64,000 nucleotides of DNA, taken from NCBI GenBank assembly GCA_964421635.1, contig CAYQWZ010000003.1, forward strand, positions 1,712 to 65,711, written 5' to 3'. The translations under genes were made by a program, and so were the position numbers. Below the pieces are notes generated by a model. That model was not told the DNA's origin. It searched no databases and saw only the letters and a list, made by a program, of their open reading frames with translations. The DNA is from an uncultured Candidatus Saccharibacteria bacterium (GTDB lineage: Bacteria > Patescibacteriota > UBA1384 > CAILIB01 > JAUSJZ01). Shown piece by piece: positions 547 through 42,918 of the stretch (position 1 is its first letter; every line of letters begins with the position of its first letter).

Positions 547-1590
547 TTATTTTAGTTCAATTATTTTGGCTTTTTGGCGCCAAACTTTTGGTACATGGTC
601 AAGGTCAGTAGTGGTGAGGACTGTTTGAACGCTTGAGGTCACTTCTACGAGTCGTTCGCGACGATTATGGTCTAATTCACTCATCACATCATCTAATAGT
701 AAAACAACATCATTATCGTCCTCTCTTGCTGCTTTACTCAAAAAATCTAACTCTACCATTTTTAAACCAAAAACTAGGGAGCGCACCTCGCCGCGAGAAG
801 CGCAGCTTCGAGCGGGCACATTATTAAAGCTAATTATAAAGTCATCTCGGTGCGGACCGCGTATAGTTTGACCAAACATTATCTCGCGTTCCCGAAGTGC
901 CGCTTGTTCTTCTTCCAGCCTTTCTGTCTCCGCCGGATGCGTCTCATGTTTGATTGTTATCTTAGTATTATCTTGGCTCAAACAGACATAATGTTTAGGT
1001 AATTCGCGCTGCGCTAAACTAATAAAAGCTGATCTTGTGAGCCAAATTTGGTTAGCCAAAATTGCCAGTTCTTTGTCCCAAAAATTCAATTCATCTTCTT
1101 TGCTTTGTTTGTCGCGAATACGTTTTAAAAGCTTATTGCGTTGCATCACTACCTGCCTATATTTAACTAAGCTGTCGCTATAATTTCGGTCTGACTGCGA
1201 TAAAACAACATTTAAAAAGTGGCGCCGGACGGCCGGGGAACCGAGCACCAACAATAAATCTTCTGGCTCAAATAAAACTGTTTTAATGGTACCAACCACC
1301 TCTTTGGCAATCCTTCTGACGCCCGAAACTGCATACTCTTTTTTGTAAGGATTATTATGCACCACCACTACCACATCATCAGCTTGAATCTTGGCAAAGT
1401 TTTTATTATAACTAATTACCTCGATATCACTTTTAGTGCGCCAAGAGCGAGTAGTAGACGCGAGTGAGATTGCTTCCAAAATATTTGTTTTTCCCACTCC
1501 ATTTGGCCCAACAATTAAGGTCAAATTAGACAACTCAAAAGAGATATTTTTATGAGAGCGAAAATTTTGCAATTCGATTTTCTTGAGCAT
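547..1590 (-). CDS. recF: DNA replication and repair protein RecF
   Basis: N-terminal LKKIELQNFRSH...LIVGPNGVGKTNILEAISL Walker A plus an SMC-like C-terminal signature. Start overlaps the dnaN stop. Confidence 0.9.
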   Translation of the reverse strand: MLKKIELQNFRSHKNISFELSNLTLIVGPNGVGKTNILEAISLASTTRSWRTKSDIEVISYNKNFAKIQADDVVVVVHNNPYKKEYAVSGVRRIAKEVVGTIKTVLFEPEDLLLVLGSPAVRRHFLNVVLSQSDRNYSDSLVKYRQVVMQRNKLLKRIRDKQSKEDELNFWDKELAILANQIWLTRSAFISLAQRELPKHYVCLSQDNTKITIKHETHPAETERLEEEQAALREREIMFGQTIRGPHRDDFIISFNNVPARSCASRGEVRSLVFGLKMVELDFLSKAAREDDNDVVLLLDDVMSELDHNRRERLVEVTSSVQTVLTTTDLDHVPKVWRQKAKIIELK

Positions 1591-2705
1591 TAATTACTGA
1601 CACGAATCGGCATCACAATATGTTGATAGCTCGGCATATCAGGATTAGCCACCACAGCCGGCGCCGTAGGACCAGCGAACTTGATGATAATTTTGCTGCC
1701 CGCGGCGGCGTTAACTGCATCTAAAAGATATCTGGTATTAAAAGCGATATCTAGGGTTTTTTCATTTGTATTGTGCATTACTTCTGCATCTAGGGCAGAA
1801 ACCTCTTGCCCATACTGCGAGGCCACAGAGGTCAGGCGCACATTTTGATCTTCAATTTTAATGTGAACATTATTGGCTTGGTTAGTAGTAAAAACAGAGG
1901 CCATACGCAAAGCATTAGCAATGTTTGCTGAATCTAATACCACTTCTGTCACAAAATCTGTAGGAATGACTTTGGTGTATTCAGGGAAGGTTGCCTCTAT
2001 TAGGCGAGTCACAATAATGCTGTCACCAACAGTAATTTGCACCTGATTATTACTGGCCACAAATTGTACAACATCTATATCTTCTGCCGACATAATTCGC
2101 ACTGCTTCGTGTACTGCCCGTGAAGGAATAATGACTTCTAGTTCACCATTTAGGTCGTTAGTCTCTAAAATATATTCAGCTAAGCGAAAGCTGTCTGTGG
2201 CAGCAATATTAATGCTATTATTTTTTCCTTTTAAATAAACTCCGGCTAGGGCTGGACGCGCTTCATCAACAGCGGTGGCTACTACTACAACTGAGAGAGC
2301 GGTCAGTAACTCATTTTTAGAAAGAGAGAATGAAGTGCCTTTTTCAATTGACGGAATAGAAGGATATTCAGTAGCAGCAATACCCGGAATTTCAGCTTTG
2401 AAGGATTCTGAAAGAGCGATGATTTTTTCTTTATCTGTTTTAAAGGAAATTGTTTCGTCATTATTGTTATTAACAAATTCAACCAGTGTTCTAGCCGGTA
2501 CAGTGGTTGAACCATCAACTTCTACCTTAGCGCCAACCCAAGTGATAACGCCAATTTCCAAGTCTGTGGCTGACAAGCGAAGACGACCCTTCTCTGTCTC
2601 CATTAATATATTAGCTAAAACAGGCAGCGTGGCGGCATTACCAACTGCGCGTGACACTAGGGTTAGACCTTTACTTAAATTTTTCTGCGTTGCGGATAAC
2701 TTCAT
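1590..2705 (-). CDS. dnaN: DNA polymerase III beta sliding clamp
   Basis: 371 aa with beta-clamp three-domain architecture, in the conserved dnaA-dnaN-recF order. Confidence 0.9.
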   Translation of the reverse strand: MKLSATQKNLSKGLTLVSRAVGNAATLPVLANILMETEKGRLRLSATDLEIGVITWVGAKVEVDGSTTVPARTLVEFVNNNNDETISFKTDKEKIIALSESFKAEIPGIAATEYPSIPSIEKGTSFSLSKNELLTALSVVVVATAVDEARPALAGVYLKGKNNSINIAATDSFRLAEYILETNDLNGELEVIIPSRAVHEAVRIMSAEDIDVVQFVASNNQVQITVGDSIIVTRLIEATFPEYTKVIPTDFVTEVVLDSANIANALRMASVFTTNQANNVHIKIEDQNVRLTSVASQYGQEVSALDAEVMHNTNEKTLDIAFNTRYLLDAVNAAAGSKIIIKFAGPTAPAVVANPDMPSYQHIVMPIRVSN

Positions 2706-3090
2706 TAAAATATTTTATCTGTAATATGGGTCAATAACTAATTTGGTACTACTTCATTAATATTACCTTTTTAGTTGGAATTATTCTTTGTGTATAACAT
2801 GTGTACAACTTTATTATTTTTGTGGATTAATTGTTAATAAGTATAACCACATATTCACAACCTCGAGCCTCGTGCCAAAATTTATCTCTAAATATTAGTT
2901 ACTTATACAAATTTATAATCATTTACACACAGCTTAATCCACATAAAATATTAACAACCTTGATATAAATATTTGAATACTAGAATTTTTATTGATGTCT
3001 TTTCCACAAATCCACAAGACTTATTATTACTAACACTACTTATCTTAATTAATAAGAGATTAATAATATAAGAGACTTATAAAAATCTAA
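2706..3090. promoter_or_regulatory. AT-rich dnaA-dnaN intergenic region with several DnaA-box-like 9-mers (candidate oriC / DnaA-box cluster)
   Basis: tgtggatta (2821-2829), taatccaca (2935-2943), ctttccaca (2999-3008) and aaatccaca (3008-3016) each have 1-2 mismatches to TTATCCACA. The 385-bp region is very AT-rich. Confidence 0.45.
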
Positions 3091-4515
3091 TTAAGTAACT
3101 TGATAAAGTTTAGATTTTAGATTCTTTATTTCAGAAAATAAATCTTCATTCTTCTTGAGCTCTTTTTCTATTTTGCCGCATCCGTGCATGACTGTAGTAT
3201 GATCTCTTCCCCCAAGGTAGCGCCCAATATTAGGGTAGGATAGGCGCAACTCATTCTTTAATAAATACATTAAAATTTGTCTTGGACGAACATACTCTTT
3301 ATTGCGACGCGGTCCAATAACATCTTTTTTATCAATGCTATAAAAATCACAAATCATTTCATTTATTTGGTCAGCCGATAAAAGCTTCTTCTTCTTATTT
3401 TGTTTTAAGATGCCCTTTAAAGCTTCTTCAACCACCTTAAGTTCAGGCTCTACATTATTGACCATAACATGCGTCTGAATGGTCGTTAGGGCCCCCTCAA
3501 GCTCTCTAATATTTGATTCTATGTTCTCCGCAACATAATTAATAGATTCGTCTGGCATCTCAAAGTTTTTTTCTTCACACTTCACTCTTAAAATTGCTGA
3601 CCTCATTTCTAAATCTGGTGGCTGGATATCTGCAATCATACCTGATTGAAAACGGCTAGCCAGCCTTTCTTCCAATTTTGGAATATCTTGAGGTACTTTG
3701 TCTGAAGTTAAAATAATTTGTTTATTCTTTTGATAAAGAGCATTAAAAGTATGAAAAAATTCTTCTTGTGTGCCACTTTTACCAGCAATAAATTGGATGT
3801 CGTCTATTAAGATTAAATCTGCATTGCGGTAACGATTTTTAAACTCTTCTTTATTTCCACTAGAAATTGAGGATACAAACTCATTCATAAAGTTCTCGCA
3901 ACTAACATAAATAACTTTCTTATTAGGTTTTTTGCGCAAAACCTCATTTCCTACTGCTTGAATTAGATGTGTTTTTCCTAATCCTACGCCACCATAAATA
4001 TAAAAAGGATTATGTTGTGTACCAGGATTATTTGAGACTGCTTGGGCGGTAGCGTGCGAGAGACGGTTAGTGTTGCCAACGACGAAATTTTCAAATGTAT
4101 AGCGAGGATTTAAATTGGCGTTCTCGGCTGCTCGAGCCCAAGCGATAGCCGGCCGAGACTGTTTTTTGCCAGCATTCTTTTCATCTTCAAGTAAGCTCGT
4201 TTGGTTAGGATCAACAATCTGTTTAGTCTTTTGAATGCGGCTTTGAGGAAGGACAGTAAAACATATTTTTTTGATTTGTTGCTCGAGGTGTTTATTTAAA
4301 ATTTTAAGTAAGTCTACCTCGAAATGGTTTTTAATCCATTCAATAGTGAAGGCATTGGCCACACCGACAGTGACGGTGGTGCGATCGACTTTTAACAAAA
4401 TAGAATTGGAAAACCAAGTTTTGAAATTAGCACCCGAGACGGAGACTTCTAATTCTCCTAAAACCCCTTTCCAAAGTGAATGTAATTCTTCAGGATTCAT
4501 TAAAAATTTAGTCAA
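3091..4515 (-). CDS. dnaA: Chromosomal replication initiator DnaA
   Basis: AAA+ Walker A GVGLGKTHLIQAVGNE and a C-terminal DNA-binding domain (KKDVIGPRRNKEYVRPRQILMYL); 474 aa. Confidence 0.95.
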   Translation of the reverse strand: MTKFLMNPEELHSLWKGVLGELEVSVSGANFKTWFSNSILLKVDRTTVTVGVANAFTIEWIKNHFEVDLLKILNKHLEQQIKKICFTVLPQSRIQKTKQIVDPNQTSLLEDEKNAGKKQSRPAIAWARAAENANLNPRYTFENFVVGNTNRLSHATAQAVSNNPGTQHNPFYIYGGVGLGKTHLIQAVGNEVLRKKPNKKVIYVSCENFMNEFVSSISSGNKEEFKNRYRNADLILIDDIQFIAGKSGTQEEFFHTFNALYQKNKQIILTSDKVPQDIPKLEERLASRFQSGMIADIQPPDLEMRSAILRVKCEEKNFEMPDESINYVAENIESNIRELEGALTTIQTHVMVNNVEPELKVVEEALKGILKQNKKKKLLSADQINEMICDFYSIDKKDVIGPRRNKEYVRPRQILMYLLKNELRLSYPNIGRYLGGRDHTTVMHGCGKIEKELKKNEDLFSEIKNLKSKLYQVT

Positions 4516-17431: not shown

Positions 17432-20400
17432 TTACCATGCAATATGGATTACATCCCAGAAGTCAGGGGAGGTGCAGATGCCGTAATTCTTCGGATCACC
17501 AGTAGCGTTTGAGTTACAGGCTCCTGAACGATAGCGCAAATTGAGAGCGTAAATTTGGTCAGCGTATTGGCTGTCTTCTTGATATAGGTCATGATTTTGT
17601 ACAGAAGTTTCGATTCCCTGAACCTTATTGGCGTCATCGGCCGACTCGTTAATGCGGTGAATTAATACTTGAGTAGGATAAAAATCGGAAGTGTAGTATT
17701 CAGCCCCGCGCTCTTCTCCCATAAAAAGGTCAGTTACCAAATTAATCACCTTGCCGCGCGCCGCCTCTTTGAATCCGTGGAGTTTTTGCACTTCATTTGT
17801 CGGATCAAATTCGCCGAAATAGGTACCCTTTAATTTACCAATATCATTCAGCGTCTCGGCCGCTGGCCACTGAGTGTACGGCACATTGCCCGTGCTCGGG
17901 TCGAAAGGTGGGGAGAACTCTCCCACCTTACCCACAAAAGGATAATAGCCGTCGGCGGTGGCTTTGGTAGTTATTCTAGTTTTGCCAAAGCCAAAGATTG
18001 TGACTAACACAAAGATGGCTAAGCTGACGAAGAACATTGGGCCGGTGCCAATTATTAAGGCGGTTAAAACTAAACTTAGTGCACCCGTAATTGTGCCTGG
18101 TGGTAAACCGATAGCGGTTTCAATTTTAGCAATCTCTTTGCCAAAAATTAAGTCTACTACATAAATTCCTAGCTCAATAGCCGCGTTAACCATTTGCGTT
18201 TTGAGCATGGCTATCTGTTCAGCACTCTGTTTTAATTTTACGGCTTGACTGTATGAATCGTAAGTTTTGTAGAAATTGTATGAAAGCTGGTAGGCATGCG
18301 CCAGTTTACCAGCTTGAATTCCCAGAATTTGTTCACCAAAGTAGAATGCTCGACCAAGCAGCCAGTTGGTATCGTAAAGCTCTGATAATCCTTTTACACC
18401 TACTCCTGAAATTGAGAAGGATTGATCGTTGCCGTTAAGCGCAAAGCCAAACACACCGGCCAAGGTGCCATCAACTAAGCCTAGGTCTTTAAATAGGGCG
18501 GAGCCGAACAGATCGTCTTCAAAACCAGAGAGACGGACTAATCCTTGTTCCGTTAGAAGCTCATTAATATTAGCGCTGTTGCCCTGAATCATTTCAATAG
18601 TGGCCTTAATGGTTTGCTGTTCTGTCAGCCAGCCCAACCCTTGACTGTCTAAATCACTGCGGAACTGCTTGGCCAAAACATTGGAGCTAATATAGGCAAT
18701 AGCGTTTGTTCTCTCTTCAGGCGTTCCTTCGAATAAAATTCGAGATAAGCCAGGCGCTACTAATCCTTTTTGATCGAGTAGCTTCGATAAACCAAAGTCC
18801 ATAGAGGCGTAGCCGAACTCTTTGCCAATGTAATCCCAAGAAGTTTGGGCGACCATTTGAGTGCTCTTGGTGGCGGCAGCGCGGGAGCTATCTGTCTGTA
18901 CAGCCGCTTTTATGCTGTCTAGGGTGGCTTGGTCTAGTCGCTCGTCAGCGGTGTCGTAGCTGGCATCGTTATTTGTTTGTGCCACTTCAGAGTCTGGTTC
19001 TTCAACCACATTCTCATTAGCTGTTTCGGCGTCACCACCTTCAAAGTTTTGTTGTAGCTCGTTTTCGGTGTCAGTGCGTTTATTATCTAAACTTAGCTCA
19101 GCGCCAGCCGCCACCGCCTGCAACACTAGCTGCTCTACTTCATTAGCTAATCCTTCTTCCTCGGTTAGGGCGGGAGCATGGCTGCTGGTTTGCAAAACAT
19201 TGCGAACTCTATTAATTTCACCATCGACATCGACGCCATCTTCGCGTGCTTCTGTAATAGATCTATTGGCGGTGCTTGCGAAGGATACATAACTGTCTTT
19301 AGTAGACAGAGCCTCAATATTTAAATCGGCGATAGCCATAACGGCGTTGATAGGAACTTGGAAGAACGGCCAAACTTCGCCTCCAATTTGTTGCTGAATG
19401 TACTGGCCAGCGATATCTCTAAACTCGCTTAAGGCGCCTACCATAGCTGCAGTAGGATTAACTCCTGCTAACTCGAAGTGACCTGAATCGCGATTATATA
19501 AAGCGCCAAACAGCACTCGTTGCATTACTCTCTTGGCATTAATGCTACGGTCATAATCATTAGTGTTAGTATCTGACATATTGATACCGAAAGCGCGGCC
19601 AGCTAATAATCGGACTCCTTGGTCGAATAGAATTTCATCTGCCTGTTTTGGTTTAGCAATGAGGTCGGCCATGGTGCCCGCTTCAAATCCTAAAGATTTA
19701 TCAATATTGAAGCTGAAGGCCTCAGACATAATTTTATAAACCCGAGCTAAACTGGCTGAGTCATACTCAGACTGTTTAAAGAAATCGATGAGAAAATTAC
19801 GATTGCTGCTGTTAGAAATTAAACCATCAAAAATTGGATCCTCAACACCTAGTCTTTGGAGTATGGCTGCAAACGCCTCGCCACCAAACTCTGTGGCTCC
19901 CTGCTCTCCAGCCATAGATACAAGCTGAGCGGTACTGATTTTTCCTTCAATCCACTTTCGAGTTGGCCCGTTATTCTCTTCATCTAAAATGCCTAGTCGG
20001 CGGTCAATGCCGTTCAGTCTAATTTCGTAGTAGTTATTTGATAAGCTTCCACCGAAGGCAGCGTCAATACTGCTGTTGATTAATCCGTCGTACTGATGAG
20101 CTAGAGCAAAATAATCATCTAGTAGATAGAAAATTCCTCGGTCAGCGCCTTCAGATTCAACAAAAATCTCTCGTGCTTCAAGATAAGATAACCTCATAGA
20201 AGTGGTCATCTCGTACATCTCTGTTTCAATGTCGTTCATCTTTTTGGTAATAGCTTTTGCTTCATCAGGAACAGGAATACTAAAAGCAGCCATTATTTTC
20301 TTCTGCCAGTCTCTCTTTTCAAGATCGTTCATAGAACCGGAGCCTTTCAACATCTCTTCTCTGGTGCCCTTAAATTCGCCTGTTTGTAATCCTAATATCT

Positions 20401-23400
20401 TTTCAATTCTGGCCTGCCCCATGCTCTCTACCGGATTATCTGTTAAGGTGAATCCTTTTGGCAGATCAAGTTCAATGCCCAGTTTGCCTAAAGTGGCGCT
20501 GATTATTGCCTGCTGCCGGTTCTCATCGCGCTCCGCGTCTGTGTTACCGTCAGGATAAATTACAGAATTGAAAAAATCACTTGGCAGCTCTAAGGTTTGC
20601 TCTAACTTACGACCACCAACACCCACCAAAGTTTTAACAGGATCACCCAAAATAAAGTCAGCGATATCGTCGGCCGTTAGCCAGTCAGGAATTTTGACAC
20701 CTAGCTTCTGAGCCAGTGAGCTAATGGTGCGAGCGGTAATATGCTCGCGACCCTTTTCGATTAGGCTTTGTCGGTCTGTTTCTCCGCCATCATTTCGAGA
20801 CGAGCCAACAGCGAAGAATAAATTATCGGCAGTCTGGTCGCCTTCGTAGAAAAGATAGAGTGCCTCTTTTGGTAAATCTAGGGTGTCAGCTAATTTTTGA
20901 ATTCCCAAATGCACCAAAATGTTATCTATATTGCCTCCAGCTAAAGCGCCTTGTGCCGAACTGATCAGCAATTTGTCAGAGCCAAAAAGTATTCGTAAAG
21001 GATTCAGAGGGACATCTTCTAGTGAACCAACATTCGTATTTAAACTCTCCAAACTAATCTCGCTTGGAATGTGCGAGCTGTAAGCAACAGAATCGCCCTC
21101 CATAATTTCCATCACCGCTCGTTCGATATCTGAGGCGGCGCCTAATATCTGATTGACGGAATCGAAACTGTCTGAATCCTCAACAAAATCAATAATGCTA
21201 AAGAGGTCATCTTTAACATCGCGCACAGTGTAGCTGCTCTCTAGGTTGGTTAAATTGTCACCTAGCTCTACCACGCCCGCAATAGTGCGTTTGCTGTTGT
21301 TAATTATGTTTTGTACCTGACCCTGTACTCCATCTGGGAAATCGCTGACGCGCCGCTCAATGATGCGCAAGGAGTCATAAATTTTTTGATAGCGATTAAC
21401 ATAGAAAAAGATATCAGAGGCTAATTCAGTGTCTTCCAGCTGTTCGTATTCTGGGCTGTCTTGTACTTTTTCTATTAAAAGGCGGCGACCGATGCGTCTA
21501 AATTCGTGGGCTGGTTTATCACTCAAAAAGACATCGGCGTAGAAGTTGTCTTTTGGATTAGAGGCTACGAAATTTGTGTCACCGCTAACATTTGTAACAC
21601 TTGTTCTAAACTCTTTTTGGTCGTGGCTAGGTAGAGTTTCAGACAGGTACCAAACGCCAGCTATTTTGAAAGCGCTCTCGGCGTTGCTGCCCCCAATAAT
21701 ATCGAACATCGTGCCAGCCGGAAAGCCGAAAACTCGGTCGCGTTGCTGTGAAGTACCATCAGGGTTTTGACCATAGTCGCGGTAGTCATGCAGTGTTTGT
21801 AAAGAGTCATTCAAAATATTTAAAGATGCATTATACAGGGCTATTTTTTTCTGCTCTTCTTGAGTGAGATTGTTGGCAGTGATTATTGAGCCGTTGCCAG
21901 GGACATTTAAGCTAGCGATTAATCCTTCAATGGTGCCAGTCAAAGTTTCTAAAGAAGAGATTTCGGACGCTGCATTGCTTAAGAAACTTGTGCGAGCATC
22001 TTTGTTAGAAGGATTATATGTAATCATGCCTTCAAGCGGATCATAGGTTGGCCCAGGATTTTCTGCTTGGTAGGCCTTAGCCTTAAGCCGTTCAGCTATT
22101 TGTACAACACTGTTAGCAATATCTCCTTGTCCGGCATCCTGTAAATATTTTTTTAGAATAAACAGTGAGCCTGACTGGCCAGCCCCTCCTTCGTTCTCTC
22201 TATTGGTCAGCTGCTGCACTATAAATAGAGGGCTGGCTGGAGTATAATCTTCAGCTGCATTTGCAGATTCGACATGGTAGCGACCTAAATTAGCATCCCA
22301 GACTTTTTGGCCGGCCGCCTGTTTGAACTCAGCCACATTGCCAGAGTTAATAAAGCGCAAAGTAGTATTGGCTGGTAGTCGCAGTCGCTCATCAATTATG
22401 ATGGCATTTTGAGCGGCAAAAACAGTATTGTATCGAGCCTCTCCTATAGCGGCTTTGACTTCATTAATATCATTTGAAGCGAAGGATCTCTCTGGTACGG
22501 GCAAGCGCTCTTCAATGTATCCCCATCCTAAATGCTCCTTAAACCCATTCACTGAGTCGTAGTTATTTAGGGCGTAACTTTTGATGCCCAAGAGGTCTGC
22601 TAGCCGCTGTTTTCCAATGTTCGTAAGTAAATCGTTAGGACTATCTCCTTCAGGCAGTCTATCGAGCCCAATCTGTTTAGCTACAAACTGACGGCCAGTG
22701 TACTCTTCAATATCGGCCAAAGAGTTGGCGTTGCGAATTGCTTCAGGGTCAACATTAAGAGCTCCTCCCAAAACAATAGCACCAAAATCTTTAATAGTGT
22801 CGCCAAAATTAAACTGTGAAATATCTTGGCCGTCGAGCAGAGTTCCCAGCAGCTGGCCACCGACAAACTTGGCTAAATCTTCTGTACTCAAGCTGTCGAG
22901 GGTGCGGCCATCAAAATTGAATTCACCTAAAATTTCTTCTGCATCTAAAAGCTCAAAAATGCTATTAAAAGATAGATCTTGCAGCATTTCATGAATAGCC
23001 AACTCGGGTAGAGGTTCGGCGGCAATTCCGTCATCTGATTGCCAAGCGACTTTAATGTTTATTGGTTTTTGGAACTTATAGCTGTTAGAGCTGCTGAATA
23101 TTCCGGTTTTTCGAATGCGGGTGGTGACTCGAATGCGATCAATCTCTGAAATATCAATAGCCTGTGAAACGGCGTGCGAGCCTTCATTAAACTTAATTGG
23201 CACATCTTGGCCGTTGATTTTTTGAGTTGAAAAATCGCGGCTAGTTAAATCTACGAAGTGAGGGCTACGGGTAGTCTCTAAGCTTTTATCCCATTTACCG
23301 TTACCGTTGGTGTCAATGTATTCTTCGCCTTCATTCTGCTCGTAAATTCCGTCACCGTCATCATCTAAAATTGGTTCTGCTCGGTTCTGCTGCTCCTTGC

Positions 23401-24316
23401 CTTTCTCAATAAACTGAGTTAATCTTTCAACTTTCAAGTATTCTCGGCCGGCACCTCCATCGCTGCGTGGTTTGAGTAGGTAGTCAAGGGCTAAAATTAC
23501 CCGTACATCAACGCGCGGAGGGTCGCAGTATTGGTCTTTATCGCGGGCACCATTAATGAATTCGTTGTCTTCGCTAGCGTTCCAATTAAGACAATCCCCG
23601 TTGTTCTCACCTGTAATAGCCACTAAATCTCGGCTGTGCTCAAATACCAAGCGCCGCTCATAAGTAGTTAGAGGATTCAGCCGTTCTTGTAGATCAGAAT
23701 TAATTGTATAGAAGTTTGGTAGGTATTTTGTTAATACTTCAGCCGTCAGATCTTCTTCAAGAGAAGATGAAATATTATTGCTCTCATCATTATTAATATT
23801 TTCTAGTTTTTGAGCATCTTCTCTTGGAACATAAGCATAAGTTCGGCTATTGTCGTCTTGGCTAACACTTTCATCTGGGATAAAAGATTGATTTTCAATC
23901 TTATCAATAACCTCTCGTTTATTCAGAAAAATAACAACATCATTGTCGTAAGCTGTTTCAAAACTGTTGTGTTCATCAATGACAAGGGTTAGGGCATAGC
24001 TATCAATGTCGTCGGGAAATCCTTCTCCAGGTGTGTAGACAAGGTCGTGGTCGTTGTTTGTAATAAAAGATCGACTCAATGGCGCTTCTAAATCATTTGC
24101 TCTTGGTATATCGCCTAAATCAGAAGGATTGGAACTTTCTTGATTCAAAAGCTCAATATCTTCCCCACTTCCTTCAAAGTCGCTTTCATCTGATGAGTTG
24201 GGTAATTCATCAGGATCAATTTGGGCATAAACAGTCAGAGTACTTAAAGGTAAAAATAAAGATAGTGAAGCAATTATATTTAAGCAGATGAATTGTTTAA
24301 ATAATCCTTTTTTCAT
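17432..24316 (-). CDS. Giant surface/envelope protein (2294 aa) with N-terminal signal peptide and C-terminal TM segments
   Basis: Uninterrupted 6.9-kb ORF. Signal peptide MKKGLFKQFICLNIIASLSLFLPLSTLTVYAQ. Two hydrophobic helices near the C-terminus (LSLVLTALIIGTGPMFFVSLAIFVLVTIFGFG). The start overlaps the upstream gene by 4 nt. Confidence 0.7.
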   Translation of the reverse strand: MKKGLFKQFICLNIIASLSLFLPLSTLTVYAQIDPDELPNSSDESDFEGSGEDIELLNQESSNPSDLGDIPRANDLEAPLSRSFITNNDHDLVYTPGEGFPDDIDSYALTLVIDEHNSFETAYDNDVVIFLNKREVIDKIENQSFIPDESVSQDDNSRTYAYVPREDAQKLENINNDESNNISSSLEEDLTAEVLTKYLPNFYTINSDLQERLNPLTTYERRLVFEHSRDLVAITGENNGDCLNWNASEDNEFINGARDKDQYCDPPRVDVRVILALDYLLKPRSDGGAGREYLKVERLTQFIEKGKEQQNRAEPILDDDGDGIYEQNEGEEYIDTNGNGKWDKSLETTRSPHFVDLTSRDFSTQKINGQDVPIKFNEGSHAVSQAIDISEIDRIRVTTRIRKTGIFSSSNSYKFQKPINIKVAWQSDDGIAAEPLPELAIHEMLQDLSFNSIFELLDAEEILGEFNFDGRTLDSLSTEDLAKFVGGQLLGTLLDGQDISQFNFGDTIKDFGAIVLGGALNVDPEAIRNANSLADIEEYTGRQFVAKQIGLDRLPEGDSPNDLLTNIGKQRLADLLGIKSYALNNYDSVNGFKEHLGWGYIEERLPVPERSFASNDINEVKAAIGEARYNTVFAAQNAIIIDERLRLPANTTLRFINSGNVAEFKQAAGQKVWDANLGRYHVESANAAEDYTPASPLFIVQQLTNRENEGGAGQSGSLFILKKYLQDAGQGDIANSVVQIAERLKAKAYQAENPGPTYDPLEGMITYNPSNKDARTSFLSNAASEISSLETLTGTIEGLIASLNVPGNGSIITANNLTQEEQKKIALYNASLNILNDSLQTLHDYRDYGQNPDGTSQQRDRVFGFPAGTMFDIIGGSNAESAFKIAGVWYLSETLPSHDQKEFRTSVTNVSGDTNFVASNPKDNFYADVFLSDKPAHEFRRIGRRLLIEKVQDSPEYEQLEDTELASDIFFYVNRYQKIYDSLRIIERRVSDFPDGVQGQVQNIINNSKRTIAGVVELGDNLTNLESSYTVRDVKDDLFSIIDFVEDSDSFDSVNQILGAASDIERAVMEIMEGDSVAYSSHIPSEISLESLNTNVGSLEDVPLNPLRILFGSDKLLISSAQGALAGGNIDNILVHLGIQKLADTLDLPKEALYLFYEGDQTADNLFFAVGSSRNDGGETDRQSLIEKGREHITARTISSLAQKLGVKIPDWLTADDIADFILGDPVKTLVGVGGRKLEQTLELPSDFFNSVIYPDGNTDAERDENRQQAIISATLGKLGIELDLPKGFTLTDNPVESMGQARIEKILGLQTGEFKGTREEMLKGSGSMNDLEKRDWQKKIMAAFSIPVPDEAKAITKKMNDIETEMYEMTTSMRLSYLEAREIFVESEGADRGIFYLLDDYFALAHQYDGLINSSIDAAFGGSLSNNYYEIRLNGIDRRLGILDEENNGPTRKWIEGKISTAQLVSMAGEQGATEFGGEAFAAILQRLGVEDPIFDGLISNSSNRNFLIDFFKQSEYDSASLARVYKIMSEAFSFNIDKSLGFEAGTMADLIAKPKQADEILFDQGVRLLAGRAFGINMSDTNTNDYDRSINAKRVMQRVLFGALYNRDSGHFELAGVNPTAAMVGALSEFRDIAGQYIQQQIGGEVWPFFQVPINAVMAIADLNIEALSTKDSYVSFASTANRSITEAREDGVDVDGEINRVRNVLQTSSHAPALTEEEGLANEVEQLVLQAVAAGAELSLDNKRTDTENELQQNFEGGDAETANENVVEEPDSEVAQTNNDASYDTADERLDQATLDSIKAAVQTDSSRAAATKSTQMVAQTSWDYIGKEFGYASMDFGLSKLLDQKGLVAPGLSRILFEGTPEERTNAIAYISSNVLAKQFRSDLDSQGLGWLTEQQTIKATIEMIQGNSANINELLTEQGLVRLSGFEDDLFGSALFKDLGLVDGTLAGVFGFALNGNDQSFSISGVGVKGLSELYDTNWLLGRAFYFGEQILGIQAGKLAHAYQLSYNFYKTYDSYSQAVKLKQSAEQIAMLKTQMVNAAIELGIYVVDLIFGKEIAKIETAIGLPPGTITGALSLVLTALIIGTGPMFFVSLAIFVLVTIFGFGKTRITTKATADGYYPFVGKVGEFSPPFDPSTGNVPYTQWPAAETLNDIGKLKGTYFGEFDPTNEVQKLHGFKEAARGKVINLVTDLFMGEERGAEYYTSDFYPTQVLIHRINESADDANKVQGIETSVQNHDLYQEDSQYADQIYALNLRYRSGACNSNATGDPKNYGICTSPDFWDVIHIAW

Positions 24317-31621: not shown

Positions 31622-32593
31622 TTATTGTGGTTGATTAGGTTGGTTAGGATTAGGATTTGAATCTGGCGCTGCTGGTTCGGTTGGCGCCGTCGGTTCAGTC
31701 GGCTGGACTGGTGGTTCTGGTTCGGCCGGCGCGGTTGGTTTTTCAGCGAACTTCTGTGCTTCCTGAGGAACATCGGCTACTTCAATCTGGCTCATTACGC
31801 TGTCACTAGTCGTATCTAGTTTTATTTCATCCGAGCTGGCATCCAGATGCTGGGCCTCGTTTGGCTGATCGCCAACAATTAACTGTTCTTGTGGGCTAGC
31901 TTCTTTTTGCGAAGTATCTTTTGTAATAATCTGTTCTTTGGAAACAACTTCTGTTTGAATTTTCTCTAAATCAACCAGCCTTTCTGTATCTGAAATATCA
32001 GGATTATAAATGCCGTAGAAAAGCTCAATTAGCTGTTGAGTGTTAAGCGCTTCGATGCGAACGCCGAGCTGTGATAATCCACCCGCTACGGCGTTCGCCT
32101 GAGTGTTAAGCTCATCACGGTAGCGGTTAAAGCTTGACCGGCTAAGTGAAGGGGCAGCCTGTTTTTTGAATAAAGATAGCATTCCGCCAGAAGCGCCTTT
32201 AATAGAGGCACTTCTATAAGTCAAAACAATGAAGTAATGCTTTGACATAATATTGGCTACAGAAACTAGACTACGCATAAAATTGATGTAGTCTTGAGCG
32301 TGAATTTGGAGCAACTCGTTGTCTATCTGTTTTGTATGTCGCTCCATACCAATTAAATAAGGTTCTAAATCTAGCCGTAGCGACTTAATAATTATCTGGA
32401 TTGGAAAATCTAGGCTATTTAAAAATCCTTGATATTTAGCAATTATTGAGTTTTGCTCTAACTCGTTTTTTAAATCAAAGTTAATAGGTAATGCTTTAAG
32501 TACAACCGCTAAAGAGCCATCCTTCAGAATGGCTACACCTTCTTCAATGCCAGCAATGGGCAAATTAATTTGAGGGATATCTTTATTCATCAT
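31622..32593 (-). CDS. Protein resembling the N-terminal domain of VirB4-family ATPases, encoded separately, with a Pro/Gln-rich tail
   Basis: IAGIEEGVAILKDGSLAVVLKALPINFDLK is typical of VirB4/TraC N-termini. It ends TAA, then 2 nt, then the ATG of the ATPase ORF in a different frame. Confidence 0.5.
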   Translation of the reverse strand: MMNKDIPQINLPIAGIEEGVAILKDGSLAVVLKALPINFDLKNELEQNSIIAKYQGFLNSLDFPIQIIIKSLRLDLEPYLIGMERHTKQIDNELLQIHAQDYINFMRSLVSVANIMSKHYFIVLTYRSASIKGASGGMLSLFKKQAAPSLSRSSFNRYRDELNTQANAVAGGLSQLGVRIEALNTQQLIELFYGIYNPDISDTERLVDLEKIQTEVVSKEQIITKDTSQKEASPQEQLIVGDQPNEAQHLDASSDEIKLDTTSDSVMSQIEVADVPQEAQKFAEKPTAPAEPEPPVQPTEPTAPTEPAAPDSNPNPNQPNQPQ

Positions 32594-33011
32594 CTAGTTC
32601 TGAATAACCATGACTATCTACCACTTCGGCCACATTAGCTAAATCTTTTTTAGAATATATTTTTTTAGCAACCTTCTTATTACTTTTCTTTTGCGCTTTA
32701 TCGGCTCTGATAATTGGCTTACCTGAGGATTGATACTGTGACCATCCTCGCTCTTTGGGAGTAATAATGTATTTAAACAATGAGGATAAAAACTTAGGCA
32801 TTGGCTCACCCTGAACTTTAATAGCTGCTAGGGCGAAAGCAAAAATACCAATTGCGCCCGCAATAACCATGCCTAAAAATCCGCCAATTTTAATTAGCGC
32901 CAGATAGGCAATTAACCCACCCAAAGCCAAATAACCAAATTGGATAAGCGTAAACTTACCTACAATTCGATCCTCCATATCAAGATTTTGGGGGACTTTA
33001 AACTGTGGCAT
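32583..33011 (-). CDS. PrgI/VirB3-like small membrane protein (2 TM helices)
   Basis: 142 aa with two adjacent hydrophobic helices (FGYLALGGLIAYLALIKIGGFLGMVIAGAIGIFAFALAAI). It sits immediately upstream of the VirB4-like genes and overlaps the next gene by 11 nt. Confidence 0.5.
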   Translation of the reverse strand: MPQFKVPQNLDMEDRIVGKFTLIQFGYLALGGLIAYLALIKIGGFLGMVIAGAIGIFAFALAAIKVQGEPMPKFLSSLFKYIITPKERGWSQYQSSGKPIIRADKAQKKSNKKVAKKIYSKKDLANVAEVVDSHGYSELDDE

Positions 33012-33097
33012 CTACTCTATTATAGAAGAAAAATCGACTGTTTGGGCAGCCAAAAGAGTGGACAAAATTTGAGGCTTTTTAATATTAAATAATCTTT

Positions 33098-33117
33098 CCT
33101 GCCTGCCGGCAGGCAGG
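33098..33117. repeat. Perfect 20-bp GC-rich palindrome CCTGCCTGCCGGCAGGCAGG in the divergent promoter region upstream of the T4SS-like operon
   Basis: Read directly. A second copy with one mismatch lies at 42821-42840. Confidence 0.6.
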
Positions 33118-33151
33118 TTGTAATGTAGGGTTTTGTTATAATATTTACACG

Positions 33152-33475
33152 ATGAAGAAAAGAGTCACTAATAATGATTTAGCAAATTCTATTCTAAGAA
33201 TTGAGAAATCTCAAGAAATATTTACCAGAAAGCTAGAAAGTTTTGAGAATAGACTAGAAGGCTTCTCGAGTACACAAGAAAGTTTACTGAGTGCAATTTT
33301 AAATACTAGAAACGAACTTAAGCAAGATCTCAAAGGGACAGAAGCAAGATTAGATAATAAAATTGATACAAAAACTGACGATATTATTGCTTTGCTGCGA
33401 GATTTTATCCATTATTCATCTGCAAAATACGATAATCACGATAATAGAATTACTAAACTTGAAGGAGCAATTTAA
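33152..33475 (+). CDS. Hypothetical coiled-coil protein (107 aa)
   Basis: Extended -10 element ttgtTATAAT at 33133-33142, about 9 nt before the ATG, implying a leaderless or near-leaderless mRNA. Confidence 0.45.
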   Translation: MKKRVTNNDLANSILRIEKSQEIFTRKLESFENRLEGFSSTQESLLSAILNTRNELKQDLKGTEARLDNKIDTKTDDIIALLRDFIHYSSAKYDNHDNRITKLEGAI

Positions 33476-33502
33476 TGGTATCTTGGTAAAAGGAGGATGC
33501 CG

Positions 33503-33721
33503 ATGTCAGGAACTAACAATCAACCAGCTGAAGCTTGGGTGGCTGAGCGCATTAGGGCTTTTCGAGCTGGTGAGTTGCCAGTCATAGATGAACCTGAGAA
33601 CGAAGGTCTGGCAGGCTGGTATCGAAATGTCGAAGAACCAGCCGCGAGGGCTATCGCTGAAATGGAGGAGGTCGAAGCTCAGGCGACGATCGAAGTCGAG
33701 AATCTGCGTTTCGTGGGCTGA
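33503..33721 (+). CDS. Small GC-rich acidic hypothetical protein (~72 aa)
   Basis: AAGGAGG SD 6 nt upstream of the second ATG; intrinsic terminator overlaps the stop codon. Confidence 0.35.
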   Translation: MSGTNNQPAEAWVAERIRAFRAGELPVIDEPENEGLAGWYRNVEEPAARAIAEMEEVEAQATIEVENLRFVG

Positions 33722-33742
33722 GAGTACCCAGCCCGCTTTTTT
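33715..33742 (+). terminator. Intrinsic terminator (GGGCTG-loop-CAGCCC followed by gctttttt)
   Basis: Read directly. Confidence 0.5.
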
Positions 33743-33757
33743 ATGTTTACAAATTTT

Positions 33758-33846
33758 TGGTGCCGAGGGCCGGACTTGAACCGGCACAGGGTATAAACCC
33801 CAAGGGATTTTAAGTCCCTCGCGTCTACCGATTCCGCCACCCCGGC
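33758..33846 (-). tRNA. tRNA-Leu (anticodon UAA), class II
   Basis: Manual fold: acceptor GCCGGGG, anticodon stem AGGGA/TCCCT, loop CTTAAAA, long variable arm, T-arm GCCGGTTCAAGTCCGGC, CCA encoded. Confidence 0.85.
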
Positions 33847-38215: not shown

Positions 38216-38289
38216 GTTAAGTTAAATTAAACAAACTCAATTTTCAGTTTGGTGCCCGTAGCGCCGCGGTTTTTTTGTTACAATAATTG

Positions 38290-38460
38290 TGGAGATCGCC
38301 TATGAAACTGCCGAAGCGGTACACTCAGAAGCTGCCCGAGCCCCTTCGGAGGAGGTGATCTGAATCTTAGGATACTGCCAGTGTCGATCTGGTAAGTCCG
38401 CCCGAGCCTAGCCCGCTCGGCCAGAGTTCTATGCGGGGTCCAAGGAGGGCCCCCTTTTTT
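38290..38460 (+). ncRNA. Candidate ~170-nt structured small RNA (unassigned family) with extended -10 promoter and intrinsic terminator. It contains an 18-codon sORF (MKLPKRYTQKLPEPLRRR) with a GGAG SD.
   Basis: TGtTACAAT at 38275-38283. GC-rich internal hairpins (CCGAGC-ctagccc-GCTCGG). Terminator GGGGTCC-aagga-GGGCCCC plus tttttt at 38435-38460. No long ORF on either strand. Confidence 0.35.
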
Positions 38461-38490
38461 ATGTAGCGAGACTGTTAAAATATTATTTTT

Positions 38491-38577: not shown

Positions 38578-38632
38578 AAAGACTACATTAGATTTTACAA
38601 TTAATCTTTTTGGCAGTCAATTGGCTAATAAA

Positions 38633-38806
38633 TAAAAAAACCCTGCGCAGTACGACAAGCGCAGGGTTCCGGGTGTGCGACACGCGCGAAGGTTGGGGCT
38701 GAAGTAGAGAGCCACCAGCATTGGGGGGGGTTGTCACGGCCTGGAGGATCCTGCTTTGGAGGTGCTGGAGAGAAACTCTCTATGGATTCAGCCCGCGGGA
38801 GGTAGG
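38633..38806 (-). ncRNA. Candidate ~175-nt GC-rich structured small RNA (unassigned; 6S-like or other) with extended -10 promoter and intrinsic terminator
   Basis: Minus-strand TGcTAATAT at 38812-38820. Long closing helix GGCTGAATCCATAGAGAG / CTCTCTACTTCAGCC with an inner CCAGCA/TGCTGG stem. Terminator CCCTGCGC-loop-GCGCAGGG plus an 8-nt U-tract (38633-38666). Confidence 0.35.
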
Positions 38807-38874
38807 GTTTACGGTAATTGCATATTAGCACAAAGATAATCTTTTGTTAATGTTCAAGCTGCCATAATGCCAAT

Positions 38875-40472: not shown

Positions 40473-40549
40473 GGGTGCGTAGCTCAGTTGGTTAGAGCTT
40501 TCGGCTTATATCCGAACGGTCCCAGGTTCAAGTCCTGGCGCACCCACCA
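40473..40549 (+). tRNA. tRNA-Ile (anticodon UAU)
   Basis: Manual fold: acceptor GGGTGCG, D-arm GCTCAGTTGGTTAGAGC, anticodon stem TTCGG/CCGAA, loop CTTATAT (anticodon TAT), T-arm CCAGGTTCAAGTCCTGG, CCA encoded. Confidence 0.8.
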
Positions 40550-42694: not shown

Positions 42695-42722
42695 ACCGCC
42701 CCAACTCGGGCGGTTTTTTTTT
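42695..42722 (+). terminator. Strong intrinsic terminator (CCGCCC-caactc-GGGCGG followed by 9 T)
   Basis: Read directly. Confidence 0.65.
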
Positions 42723-42820
42723 ATTACGTTTTTGAGTTAATGAAGTCTGCCGGTAAGTAGTTTTTAGAGCTTTTTCTATTTTAAGAGCGGACAATGTTTA
42801 GGAGACAATTTCAATTGGCT

Positions 42821-42840
42821 CCCTGCCTACCGGCAGGCAG
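42821..42840. repeat. Second copy (1 mismatch) of the 20-bp palindrome: CCTGCCTACCGGCAGGCAGG
   Basis: Read directly; lies in the convergent intergenic region between the membrane-protein operon and the pnp terminator. Confidence 0.55.
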
Positions 42841-42866
42841 GCGAAAAGAGAAGACTTCCGTAGGAA
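42841..42866 (-). terminator. Putative pnp terminator (CTTCC-gta-GGAAG hairpin followed on the minus strand by a U-rich tract)
   Basis: Read directly; short stem, weak. Confidence 0.35.
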
Positions 42867-42918
42867 GGCTTCGGATTATATGACTGAGCGCTCGAACAAA
42901 CTACTTACCAGCAGACTG

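Follow-up and report, generated by a model that had tools for sequence, protein, structure and literature searches.

A 20-bp palindrome beside a Patescibacteria secretion-like operon recurs across bacterial phyla and phages and is linked to a GIY-YIG gene at tRNA-Leu

Results

Two copies of a palindrome in the window

The window (the whole stretch of DNA that was analysed, 64 kb in length) comes from a Patescibacteria bacterium of the candidate phyla radiation (CPR), whose best named PNPase matches are from Berkelbacteria, and it carries two copies of a GC-rich 20-bp palindrome, the subject of this report. Copy 1 is situated between a PrgI-like gene (32583-33011, minus strand), which heads a type IV secretion system (T4SS)-like operon including a VirB4-like ATPase, and a small open reading frame (ORF) on the plus strand (33152-33475). 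Copy 2 has on one side a plus-strand operon, which possesses its own terminator, and on the other the minus-strand gene pnp. The features referred to below are the following.

33019-33024, minus strand: TATAAT box of the PrgI-like gene, 7 nt before its ATG; a leaderless-type promoter, kept in relatives without the palindrome
33098-33117, no strand assigned: palindrome copy 1, perfect, CCTGCCTGCCGGCAGGCAGG; a solo copy flanked by T on either side
33134-33142, plus strand: extended −10 box TGTTATAAT, seen in the sequence itself, 9 nt ahead of the ATG at 33152
33152-33745, plus strand: cassette of two ORFs (107 aa and 74 aa), lineage-specific, bearing its own promoter and terminator and located between tRNA-Leu(taa) and the PrgI promoter
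33758-33846, minus strand: tRNA-Leu(taa), 641 nt from copy 1
42744-42917, minus strand: 174-bp stretch with 20-bp inverted repeats (42744-42763 and 42898-42917), enclosing copy 2 and beginning 1 nt after the pnp stop codon
42822-42841, minus strand: palindrome copy 2, a one-sided variant and solo copy, G-CCTGCCTGCCGGTAGGCAGG-G on the minus strand
42848-42870, minus strand: terminator-like hairpin that follows pnp and has the tail TCTTCTCTTT; copy 2 starts 6 nt past the tail

An earlier note on this DNA had reported a perfect 20-bp palindrome at 33098-33117, which was borne out, and a second copy at 42821-42840. The latter is real and carries one mismatch (CCTGCCTACCGGCAGGCAGG), although its true coordinates lie one base to the right of those claimed. 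The two copies are the sole matches to the 20-mer in the window at up to three mismatches, and the runner-up perfect palindrome is only 14 bp long. Such a palindrome is indeed unlikely by chance, as had been supposed, with 0.00 expected in 100 dinucleotide-preserving shuffles, while the AT-richness of the background is moderate only (local GC 0.40-0.47). As single-stranded DNA, copy 1 is predicted to form a hairpin of −8.0 kcal/mol, with CCGG as the loop of an 8-bp stem. The absence of a T-tract after either copy was confirmed on both strands, and neither was called by a terminator scan, the hairpin and U-tract of an intrinsic terminator not being found together. Rfam gave no family at either copy and only tRNAs within the window. 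Within the same species, both copies recurred unchanged in eight or more independent samples (L281-L290) and are therefore not assembly artefacts. The idea that the copies share a longer unit, suggested by GAGYGGACAA at 33-38 nt upstream of each, was rejected, as the score was reached in 118 of 2000 shuffles, which is not significant; nor was GAGYGGACAA enriched near other copies of the palindrome.

A recombination site, one of the roles proposed in the earlier note, is conjectural, though both copies do lie within lineage-specific DNA. Copy 1 was placed by the earlier note about 90 bp upstream of the PrgI/VirB3-like start, in close agreement with the 87 nt measured from the start codon (33011), and is at least 74 nt upstream of the TATAAT box of that gene. 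Its supposed contact with the extended −10 box of ORF 33152 did not hold, as a gap of 16 nt precedes the box and copy 1 thus covers the −35 position. In six orthologous T4SS loci, whose VirB4-like proteins are 79-91% identical, the gene order and the PrgI promoter (TATAAT-N7-ATG) are retained, and ~68 kb contain no palindrome at up to four mismatches. Since the promoter is kept in relatives without the palindrome, the latter is not an operator conserved with the T4SS-like operon. Copy 1 sits at the PrgI-proximal edge of the cassette, a segment absent from these relatives. The PrgI promoter and tRNA-Leu(taa) enclose a hypervariable spot, which measures ~90 nt in L185 and holds other genes in L183 and L187.

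Leaderless-type promoters were noted at 33009-33024 and 33134-33154, the TATAAT of the former being conserved in the six related loci (L183-L188). The contents of the hypervariable spot in relatives are 90 nt, a gene for 265 aa or an NT5C gene. The 107-aa product of the cassette at 33152-33745 is coiled-coil-like, and neither of the two ORFs has a Pfam match above the curated cut-off.

Copy 2 had been assigned to a convergent terminator region, and it does lie between two convergent terminators, ~100 nt past that of the convergent operon (42695-42722) and just past the terminator-like hairpin and T-rich tail that follow pnp (42867-42855, minus strand). The inverted repeats bounding the 174-bp stretch differ by one mismatch, and on the pnp strand the stretch has a predicted fold of −73.6 kcal/mol (z = −8.9). 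In the one related contig examined, which encodes an 83%-identical PNPase, a different gene follows pnp and no such 174-bp stretch is present, and its 22 kb contain no palindrome at up to five mismatches. The stretch could be an insertion resembling a MITE (miniature inverted-repeat transposable element) or a structured 3' untranslated region of the PNPase gene. A role as a DNA-uptake sequence, one of those proposed earlier, is not supported, given the low copy number (two in 64 kb), the absence from the 22 kb of this relative and the lack of lineage specificity.

The 20-mer recurs across phyla and phages

An exact search with one genome per species yielded at least 120 genome stretches holding at least 127 copies, 80 of them perfect, 46 with the one-sided change of copy 2 and one with both changes. 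The hosts span at least ten phyla; among the matches listed were ~41 Bacteroidota (several of them cultured), ~30 Patescibacteria, eight Omnitrophota and nine Planctomycetota/PVC, and further hosts included Bdellovibrionales (Bdellovibrionota), uncultured Gamma- and Deltaproteobacteria, Nitrospirota, Chloroflexota, Ignavibacteria and others. In IMG/VR, 48 viral stretches contained the palindrome, and two composition-matched control palindromes (arms swapped; T changed to A) gave no viral match at all. No full-length match to the 20-mer was listed for GenBank phages and PLSDB plasmids, a match in a Klebsiella plasmid being a different hairpin. The centre reads CCGG in 42 of 56 viral copies and is mostly a one-base derivative thereof in the others, and the whole 20-mer is therefore the unit. 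Copies elsewhere mostly occur singly in an 8-kb locus, with flanks that are unrelated between loci. A purine precedes the palindrome in 101 of 126 copies, and the one-sided variant, when oriented as GGT, is flanked by G on both sides 16 times and by C on both sides never.

Of the four roles put forward in the earlier note, a REP-like (repetitive extragenic palindromic) element came closest, in that the element is dispersed; it is not genome-specific, the identical 20-mer being found in at least ten phyla and in phages. The outcome that the same note had named as refuting its proposals, namely that the motif is part of a repeated mobile element, is in effect what was found.

Several arrangements of repeats were observed at these loci. 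On viral contig L168 (3916-4125), ten or more 21-nt units are arrayed in tandem, and each is a variant of the palindrome plus one base (CCATGCCTACC+GGCAGGCAGG). Other GC-rich hairpins recur across phyla beside the palindrome, namely TCCGCCAGCTGGCGGA; ATCCCCGA..TCGGGGAT; CCCTCTCC-TTTG-GGAGAGGG followed by GGGTGAGG; and GTCATTGCGAGG..CGAAGCAATC (loci L014, L022, L030, L042, L101, L098, L148, L149, L070 and L085), the palindrome sometimes lying within their loops, and there may be a wider class of such hairpin elements. In many Bacteroidota, Planctomycetota and phage loci (for example L056, L071, L080, L116, L124, L132 and L153) the palindrome is often located amid degenerate tandem repeats of 7-10 nt, and at times the same repeat unit occurs on both of its sides, as direct repeats of 7-14 nt in L066, L106, L126, L132 and L146.

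The palindrome is inserted as an exact unit

The palindrome enters as an exact 20-bp unit, with target bases neither duplicated nor lost. In L052, a duplicated 5' half of tRNA-Lys equals the intact gene plus exactly the 20-mer, and among 26 loci in which the left flank stops at tRNA position n, the right flank restarts at n+1 in 24. Target-site duplication and extension of the palindrome did not exceed chance level. Copies in coding sequence mostly encode LPAGRQ in frame, with 21 nt (seven residues) added; when the tryptophanyl-tRNA synthetase of L094 was aligned with PDB 1yi8, its GLPAGRQ faced an exact seven-residue gap, and further in-frame hosts were S6, FtsK, ScpB-like, RfbB and histidine kinase proteins. 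In low-GC loci, ~14% of copies are located in coding sequence and the rest are intergenic, with convergent and divergent contexts numbering 11 and 9. The one-sided variant occurs in sense 11 times and in antisense 12 times across loci, and a polarity at the RNA level, hinted at by G-U pairs on the pnp strand, was dropped on these counts.

Nested copies, one base off centre, were found for example in L020, L026, L059 and L065, and copies were also found in the loops of terminators and other hairpins, with 9.5% of sites lying in the loop of a predicted hairpin whose stem has at least 6 bp, compared with 3.6% of controls. Decay proceeds without compensation (three compensatory versus 30 non-compensatory double variants) and also by loss of CCTG units, down to remnants of 16 nt and 8 nt. 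Shorter derivatives were observed at the same tRNA sites in L210, L241, L260, L263 and L262, as the 16-mer CCTGCCGGCAGGCAGG and the 8-mer CCTGCAGG, which suggests decay through loss of CCTG units or deletion of the hairpin.

A long parent element bounded by half-sites was rejected, the half-sites being only decayed full copies, as was a neighbouring transposase or regulator, for no such shared family emerged from all-against-all BLAST of the adjoining ORFs. Copy-dense phage contigs encode terminase, portal and HNH proteins and no transposase. The two window copies are fixed within the species and absent from its relatives.

A GIY-YIG gene and tRNA-Leu accompany the palindrome

The family is physically tied to a unit in which a tRNA-like sequence carrying the palindrome, a partial copy of a tRNA, is followed by a small GIY-YIG ORF and then by the intact tRNA. 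A profile search of 1.49 Mb of palindrome loci detected ten GIY-YIG ORFs, eight of them within 150 nt of a palindrome (seven judged by the ORF ends and L089 by the position of the GIY-YIG domain), and zones of up to 150 nt around the palindromes make up 4% of the sequence. In a reverse test, metagenomes were scanned with the protein alignment alone and the best 80 of at least 531 loci were taken; the palindrome or a variant with up to four mismatches was present in 66 of these 80, at a median distance of 17 nt from the start codon.

Two arrangements were distinguished. In type A, a 5' tRNA fragment with the palindrome precedes the ORF, and the intact tRNA starts 3-25 nt after the stop codon; in type B, an intact tRNA precedes the ORF, and the palindrome follows within a 3' tRNA fragment. 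The palindrome is on the side of the partial copy in 36 of 37 informative loci, being upstream in 26 and downstream in none of type A, and downstream in ten and upstream in one of type B. The adjacent tRNA is a tRNA-Leu in at least 48 of ~56 cases, with all isoacceptors represented. Insertion sites in the tRNA cluster at both ends of the D-loop and also occur at 9/10 and 39/40; L093 and L201 have a copy at the junction of anticodon stem and loop, and in type B loci the site is in the T-loop. Deletion of the palindrome restores a full tRNA in four of 245 cases (L044, L154, L256 and L275). An origin as tRNA introns was rejected, as the tRNAs bearing the palindrome are mostly partial duplicates beside an intact gene. 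Two cultured organisms carry the unit: Algoriphagus machipongonensis, with a finished genome, has a type B locus in which the tRNA 3' end and its terminator are duplicated identically, and Ekhidna lutea has a type A locus. The window itself contains no GIY-YIG gene, and beside its tRNA-Leu(taa) at 33758-33846 there is neither such a gene nor a tRNA fragment. More distant GIY-YIG genes of phages had no adjoining palindrome.

The protein has 77-85 residues and consists of a stand-alone GIY-YIG catalytic domain (Pfam PF01541, E 1e-15), and NCBIfam has no model for it. The closest solved structures are those of UPF0213 proteins (E 1e-10) and SLX1, and the Slx1 family takes in YhbQ and YazA (PMC7017083). 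At least 1489 protein-database clusters belong to the family, under no other name than 'GIY-YIG nuclease family protein' or 'putative endonuclease'. Identity among members from Patescibacteria, Bacteroidota and Thermodesulfovibrionia is 68-79%, which indicates recent transfer over the host range of the palindrome itself. Homing, in which a gene-less allele is cleaved and the gene copied, may take place, as suggested by the tRNA arms on both sides and by the identity across phyla.

Other features of the window

Between dnaN (1590-2705, minus strand) and dnaA (3091-4515, minus strand), five DnaA-box-like 9-mers are clustered at 2691-3008, marking the probable replication origin; the genes to its right, up to 35.7 kb, are nevertheless mostly on the minus strand. 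An ORF of 2294 residues without Pfam match (17432-24316) belongs to the gene run upstream of the T4SS-like cluster. Two GC-rich stretches on the minus strand (38250-38470 and 38620-38830), the second of which ends in a terminator, flank tRNA-Leu(gag) and have no convincing ORFs; no Rfam family was found for them even at E values up to 1, and they may be divergent structured RNAs. The tRNA-Ile at 40473-40549 has its TAT anticodon encoded directly and not via a modified CAT anticodon.

Discussion

Origin of the window copies

We consider it probable that the two palindromes of the window are solo copies of a 20-bp insertion element cognate to the GIY-YIG/tRNA-Leu unit, and that they are passengers and not regulators of the T4SS-like operon. 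Their local effect is likely to be limited to a strong GC hairpin in the DNA, or in the RNA if transcribed. The identity of the 20 bp across distant phyla points to an active, sequence-specific mechanism of spreading, and we infer that the GIY-YIG nuclease mobilises the palindrome. The home unit would consist of the GIY-YIG gene, an intact tRNA (usually tRNA-Leu) and a partial tRNA duplicate with the palindrome in its D- or T-loop. The nuclease, whose closest characterized relatives cut branched and hairpin DNA, would break extruded hairpins, and through repair or ligation the palindrome would be copied into the breaks, both close to the gene and elsewhere in the genome. Solo copies such as those of the window would then be by-products of its activity. 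More tentatively, and with some way to go before we would favour it outright, we propose a two-component selfish system in which a nuclease of the Slx1/UPF0213 type parasitises tRNA-Leu genes and spreads its cognate 20-bp palindrome as an exact insertion. No description of such a palindrome/GIY-YIG/tRNA-Leu system was found in the literature searched (by sequence, LPAGRQ peptide, UPF0213/YhbQ, and GIY-YIG with tRNA-Leu).

Several points weigh against this account. In the genome scan, more than 90% of the palindromes are without a GIY-YIG gene or a tRNA in their vicinity. That the nuclease binds, cuts or moves the palindrome is likewise something that we infer, and a hydrolytic nuclease alone cannot transfer strands, so that a step by host ligase or repair has to be assumed. 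Strict targeting of hairpin loops was rejected, the 2.6-fold enrichment indicating a tendency and not a rule. The partial tRNA copies may be so often occupied by the palindrome because it serves the element itself, for instance as a hairpin on the free end of the nuclease mRNA, and not because the nuclease acts locally. The account also offers no reason for the G that is in excess on either side of the GGT variant. Finally, the two window copies lie in DNA that has no homologous counterpart in the relatives, so that an exact empty site was found for neither.

Other explanations

Two other explanations survive in part, and both are unlikely in our judgement. According to the first, the palindrome acts in the transcript, its hairpin serving as a terminator or exonuclease block as REP sequences do in Escherichia coli, and copies are retained for this purpose. 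The stem is strong, copy 2 is located in the 3' region of pnp, where its mismatch and that of the outer 20-bp repeat both become G-U on the pnp strand, and within the unit the palindrome occupies that end of the ORF transcript which is not set by the tRNA (5' in type A and 3' in type B). This is opposed by the missing T-tract, by the near-even counts of convergent and divergent contexts and of sense and antisense variants, by the rarity of compensatory changes and by a centre fixed as CCGG, unlike a free loop; moreover, copy 2 lies past the terminator-like hairpin of pnp.

According to the second, the palindrome is a landing pad, that is, a site which the GIY-YIG element recognizes and homes to, whereas palindromes are spread by other means. 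A perfect dyad would suit a dimeric nuclease, tRNA genes hit by the palindrome exist as possible targets (the four that its deletion restores), and next to the hit copy the element re-creates an intact tRNA. Palindrome and ORF are separated, however, by a variable distance, from 7 to 31 nt and more, and the position in the tRNA varies too (14/15/16, 22/23/24, 9/10, 39/40 and the T-loop). The palindrome also stands intact beside the gene, which would leave the element open to attack by its own nuclease, and the spread of the palindrome itself would be left unexplained.

It is very doubtful that the palindrome is an operator on which a dimeric transcription factor controls the divergent promoters of the PrgI/T4SS operon and ORF 33152, as the earlier note had suggested. 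It is indeed a perfect dyad in a divergent promoter region and overlies the −35 position of the ORF 33152 promoter, but it is missing from the six loci with the conserved PrgI promoter, copy 2 lies between two convergent terminators, and elsewhere the 20-mer is located inside coding sequences, tRNA fragments, phages and copies of itself, in at least ten phyla and among unrelated neighbours. The search for a co-occurring helix-turn-helix regulator that the note had recommended returned no recurrent gene of this kind in an all-against-all comparison of neighbouring ORFs, in which the GIY-YIG ORF was the sole recurrent family. Chance, assembly artefact or adapter contamination can practically be dismissed: the matches do come mostly from metagenome-assembled genomes, but none are expected by chance, the controls gave no matches, cultured isolates and a finished genome carry the palindrome, at least eight samples are identical, and coding copies are in frame and tRNA sequence continues exactly across the insertion.

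Implications

The present results dispose of a regulatory annotation of the T4SS-like operon that was tempting but wrong, and they identify the palindrome as a source of spurious short ORFs, tRNA pseudogene calls and small protein insertions in metagenome annotation. If the two-component proposal is true, the palindrome would be among the smallest known mobile DNA units, moving among more than ten bacterial phyla and their phages and leaving seven-residue insertions of the LPAGRQ type in core proteins. If the nuclease does mobilise it, the pair would offer a minimal system for the study of hairpin-DNA cut-and-paste and a marker of DNA exchange among CPR bacteria, Bacteroidota, predators and phages, and the cultured hosts A. 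machipongonensis and E. lutea give experimental access.

Comparison with known systems

The palindromic elements of Rickettsia, 100-150 bp in length and confined to that genus, are inserted in frame in conserved protein genes and also in RNA genes, where they are tolerated, and to our knowledge have no cognate gene. In-frame insertion is shared with the present element, which differs in its length of 20 bp (21 nt in coding sequence) and in crossing phyla. The mobile GC clusters of yeast and fungal mitochondria are optional insertions of 30-60 bp in genes and spacers and fall into several sequence classes. Like the palindrome, they are short, GC-rich and palindromic in AT-rich DNA, in genomes that also contain GIY-YIG endonuclease genes; we know of no fixed pairing of theirs with a nuclease gene or tRNA fragment. 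MITEs and the palindrome-associated elements derived from IS200/IS605 (insertion sequences, IS) are non-autonomous, hairpin-forming and at least 100 bp long, the IS200/IS605 derivatives inserting without target duplication. The present element, in contrast to MITEs, has only 20 bp, no terminal repeats around a body, no target-site duplication, no parent IS and no recurrent transposase.

Phage T4 SegB is a free-standing GIY-YIG homing endonuclease encoded within a tRNA gene cluster (PMC2330249). Both systems have a GIY-YIG gene beside tRNA genes and are probably selfish and horizontally spread, whereas the protein described here consists of the catalytic domain alone without a DNA-binding domain, is nearer to UPF0213/Slx1 than to I-TevI, and has a gene accompanied by a partial tRNA duplicate and a 20-bp palindrome. 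In CPR rRNA genes, GIY-YIG ORFs have been noted in non-intron insertions, and most insertions are reported to lie at the tops or bases of stem-loops (PMC11270868); this may be related to the palindrome system.

A close parallel is provided by REP elements and their RAYT (REP-associated tyrosine) transposases, which together form REPtrons (Di Nocera et al., 2013; PMC3733652). As in that system, the palindrome is short, GC-rich, hairpin-forming and mainly intergenic, its 20 nt falling within the 20-40 nt of REPs, and a single small nuclease gene is flanked by the cognate palindrome, the copies of which are non-autonomous and decaying. The nuclease here is nevertheless of the GIY-YIG type and not an HUH/Y1 enzyme as in RAYTs, and its gene is located at tRNA-Leu with a partial tRNA duplicate. 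The GTAG/CGTC head of REPs is absent, the palindrome ending in CCTG...CAGG with GTAG only internally in the one-sided variant, and the element, instead of being species-specific, has the same perfect sequence in at least ten phyla and in phages, with a low copy number as opposed to tens to hundreds per genome. If the proposed system is real, it would represent a second, independent invention of the REP/RAYT arrangement.

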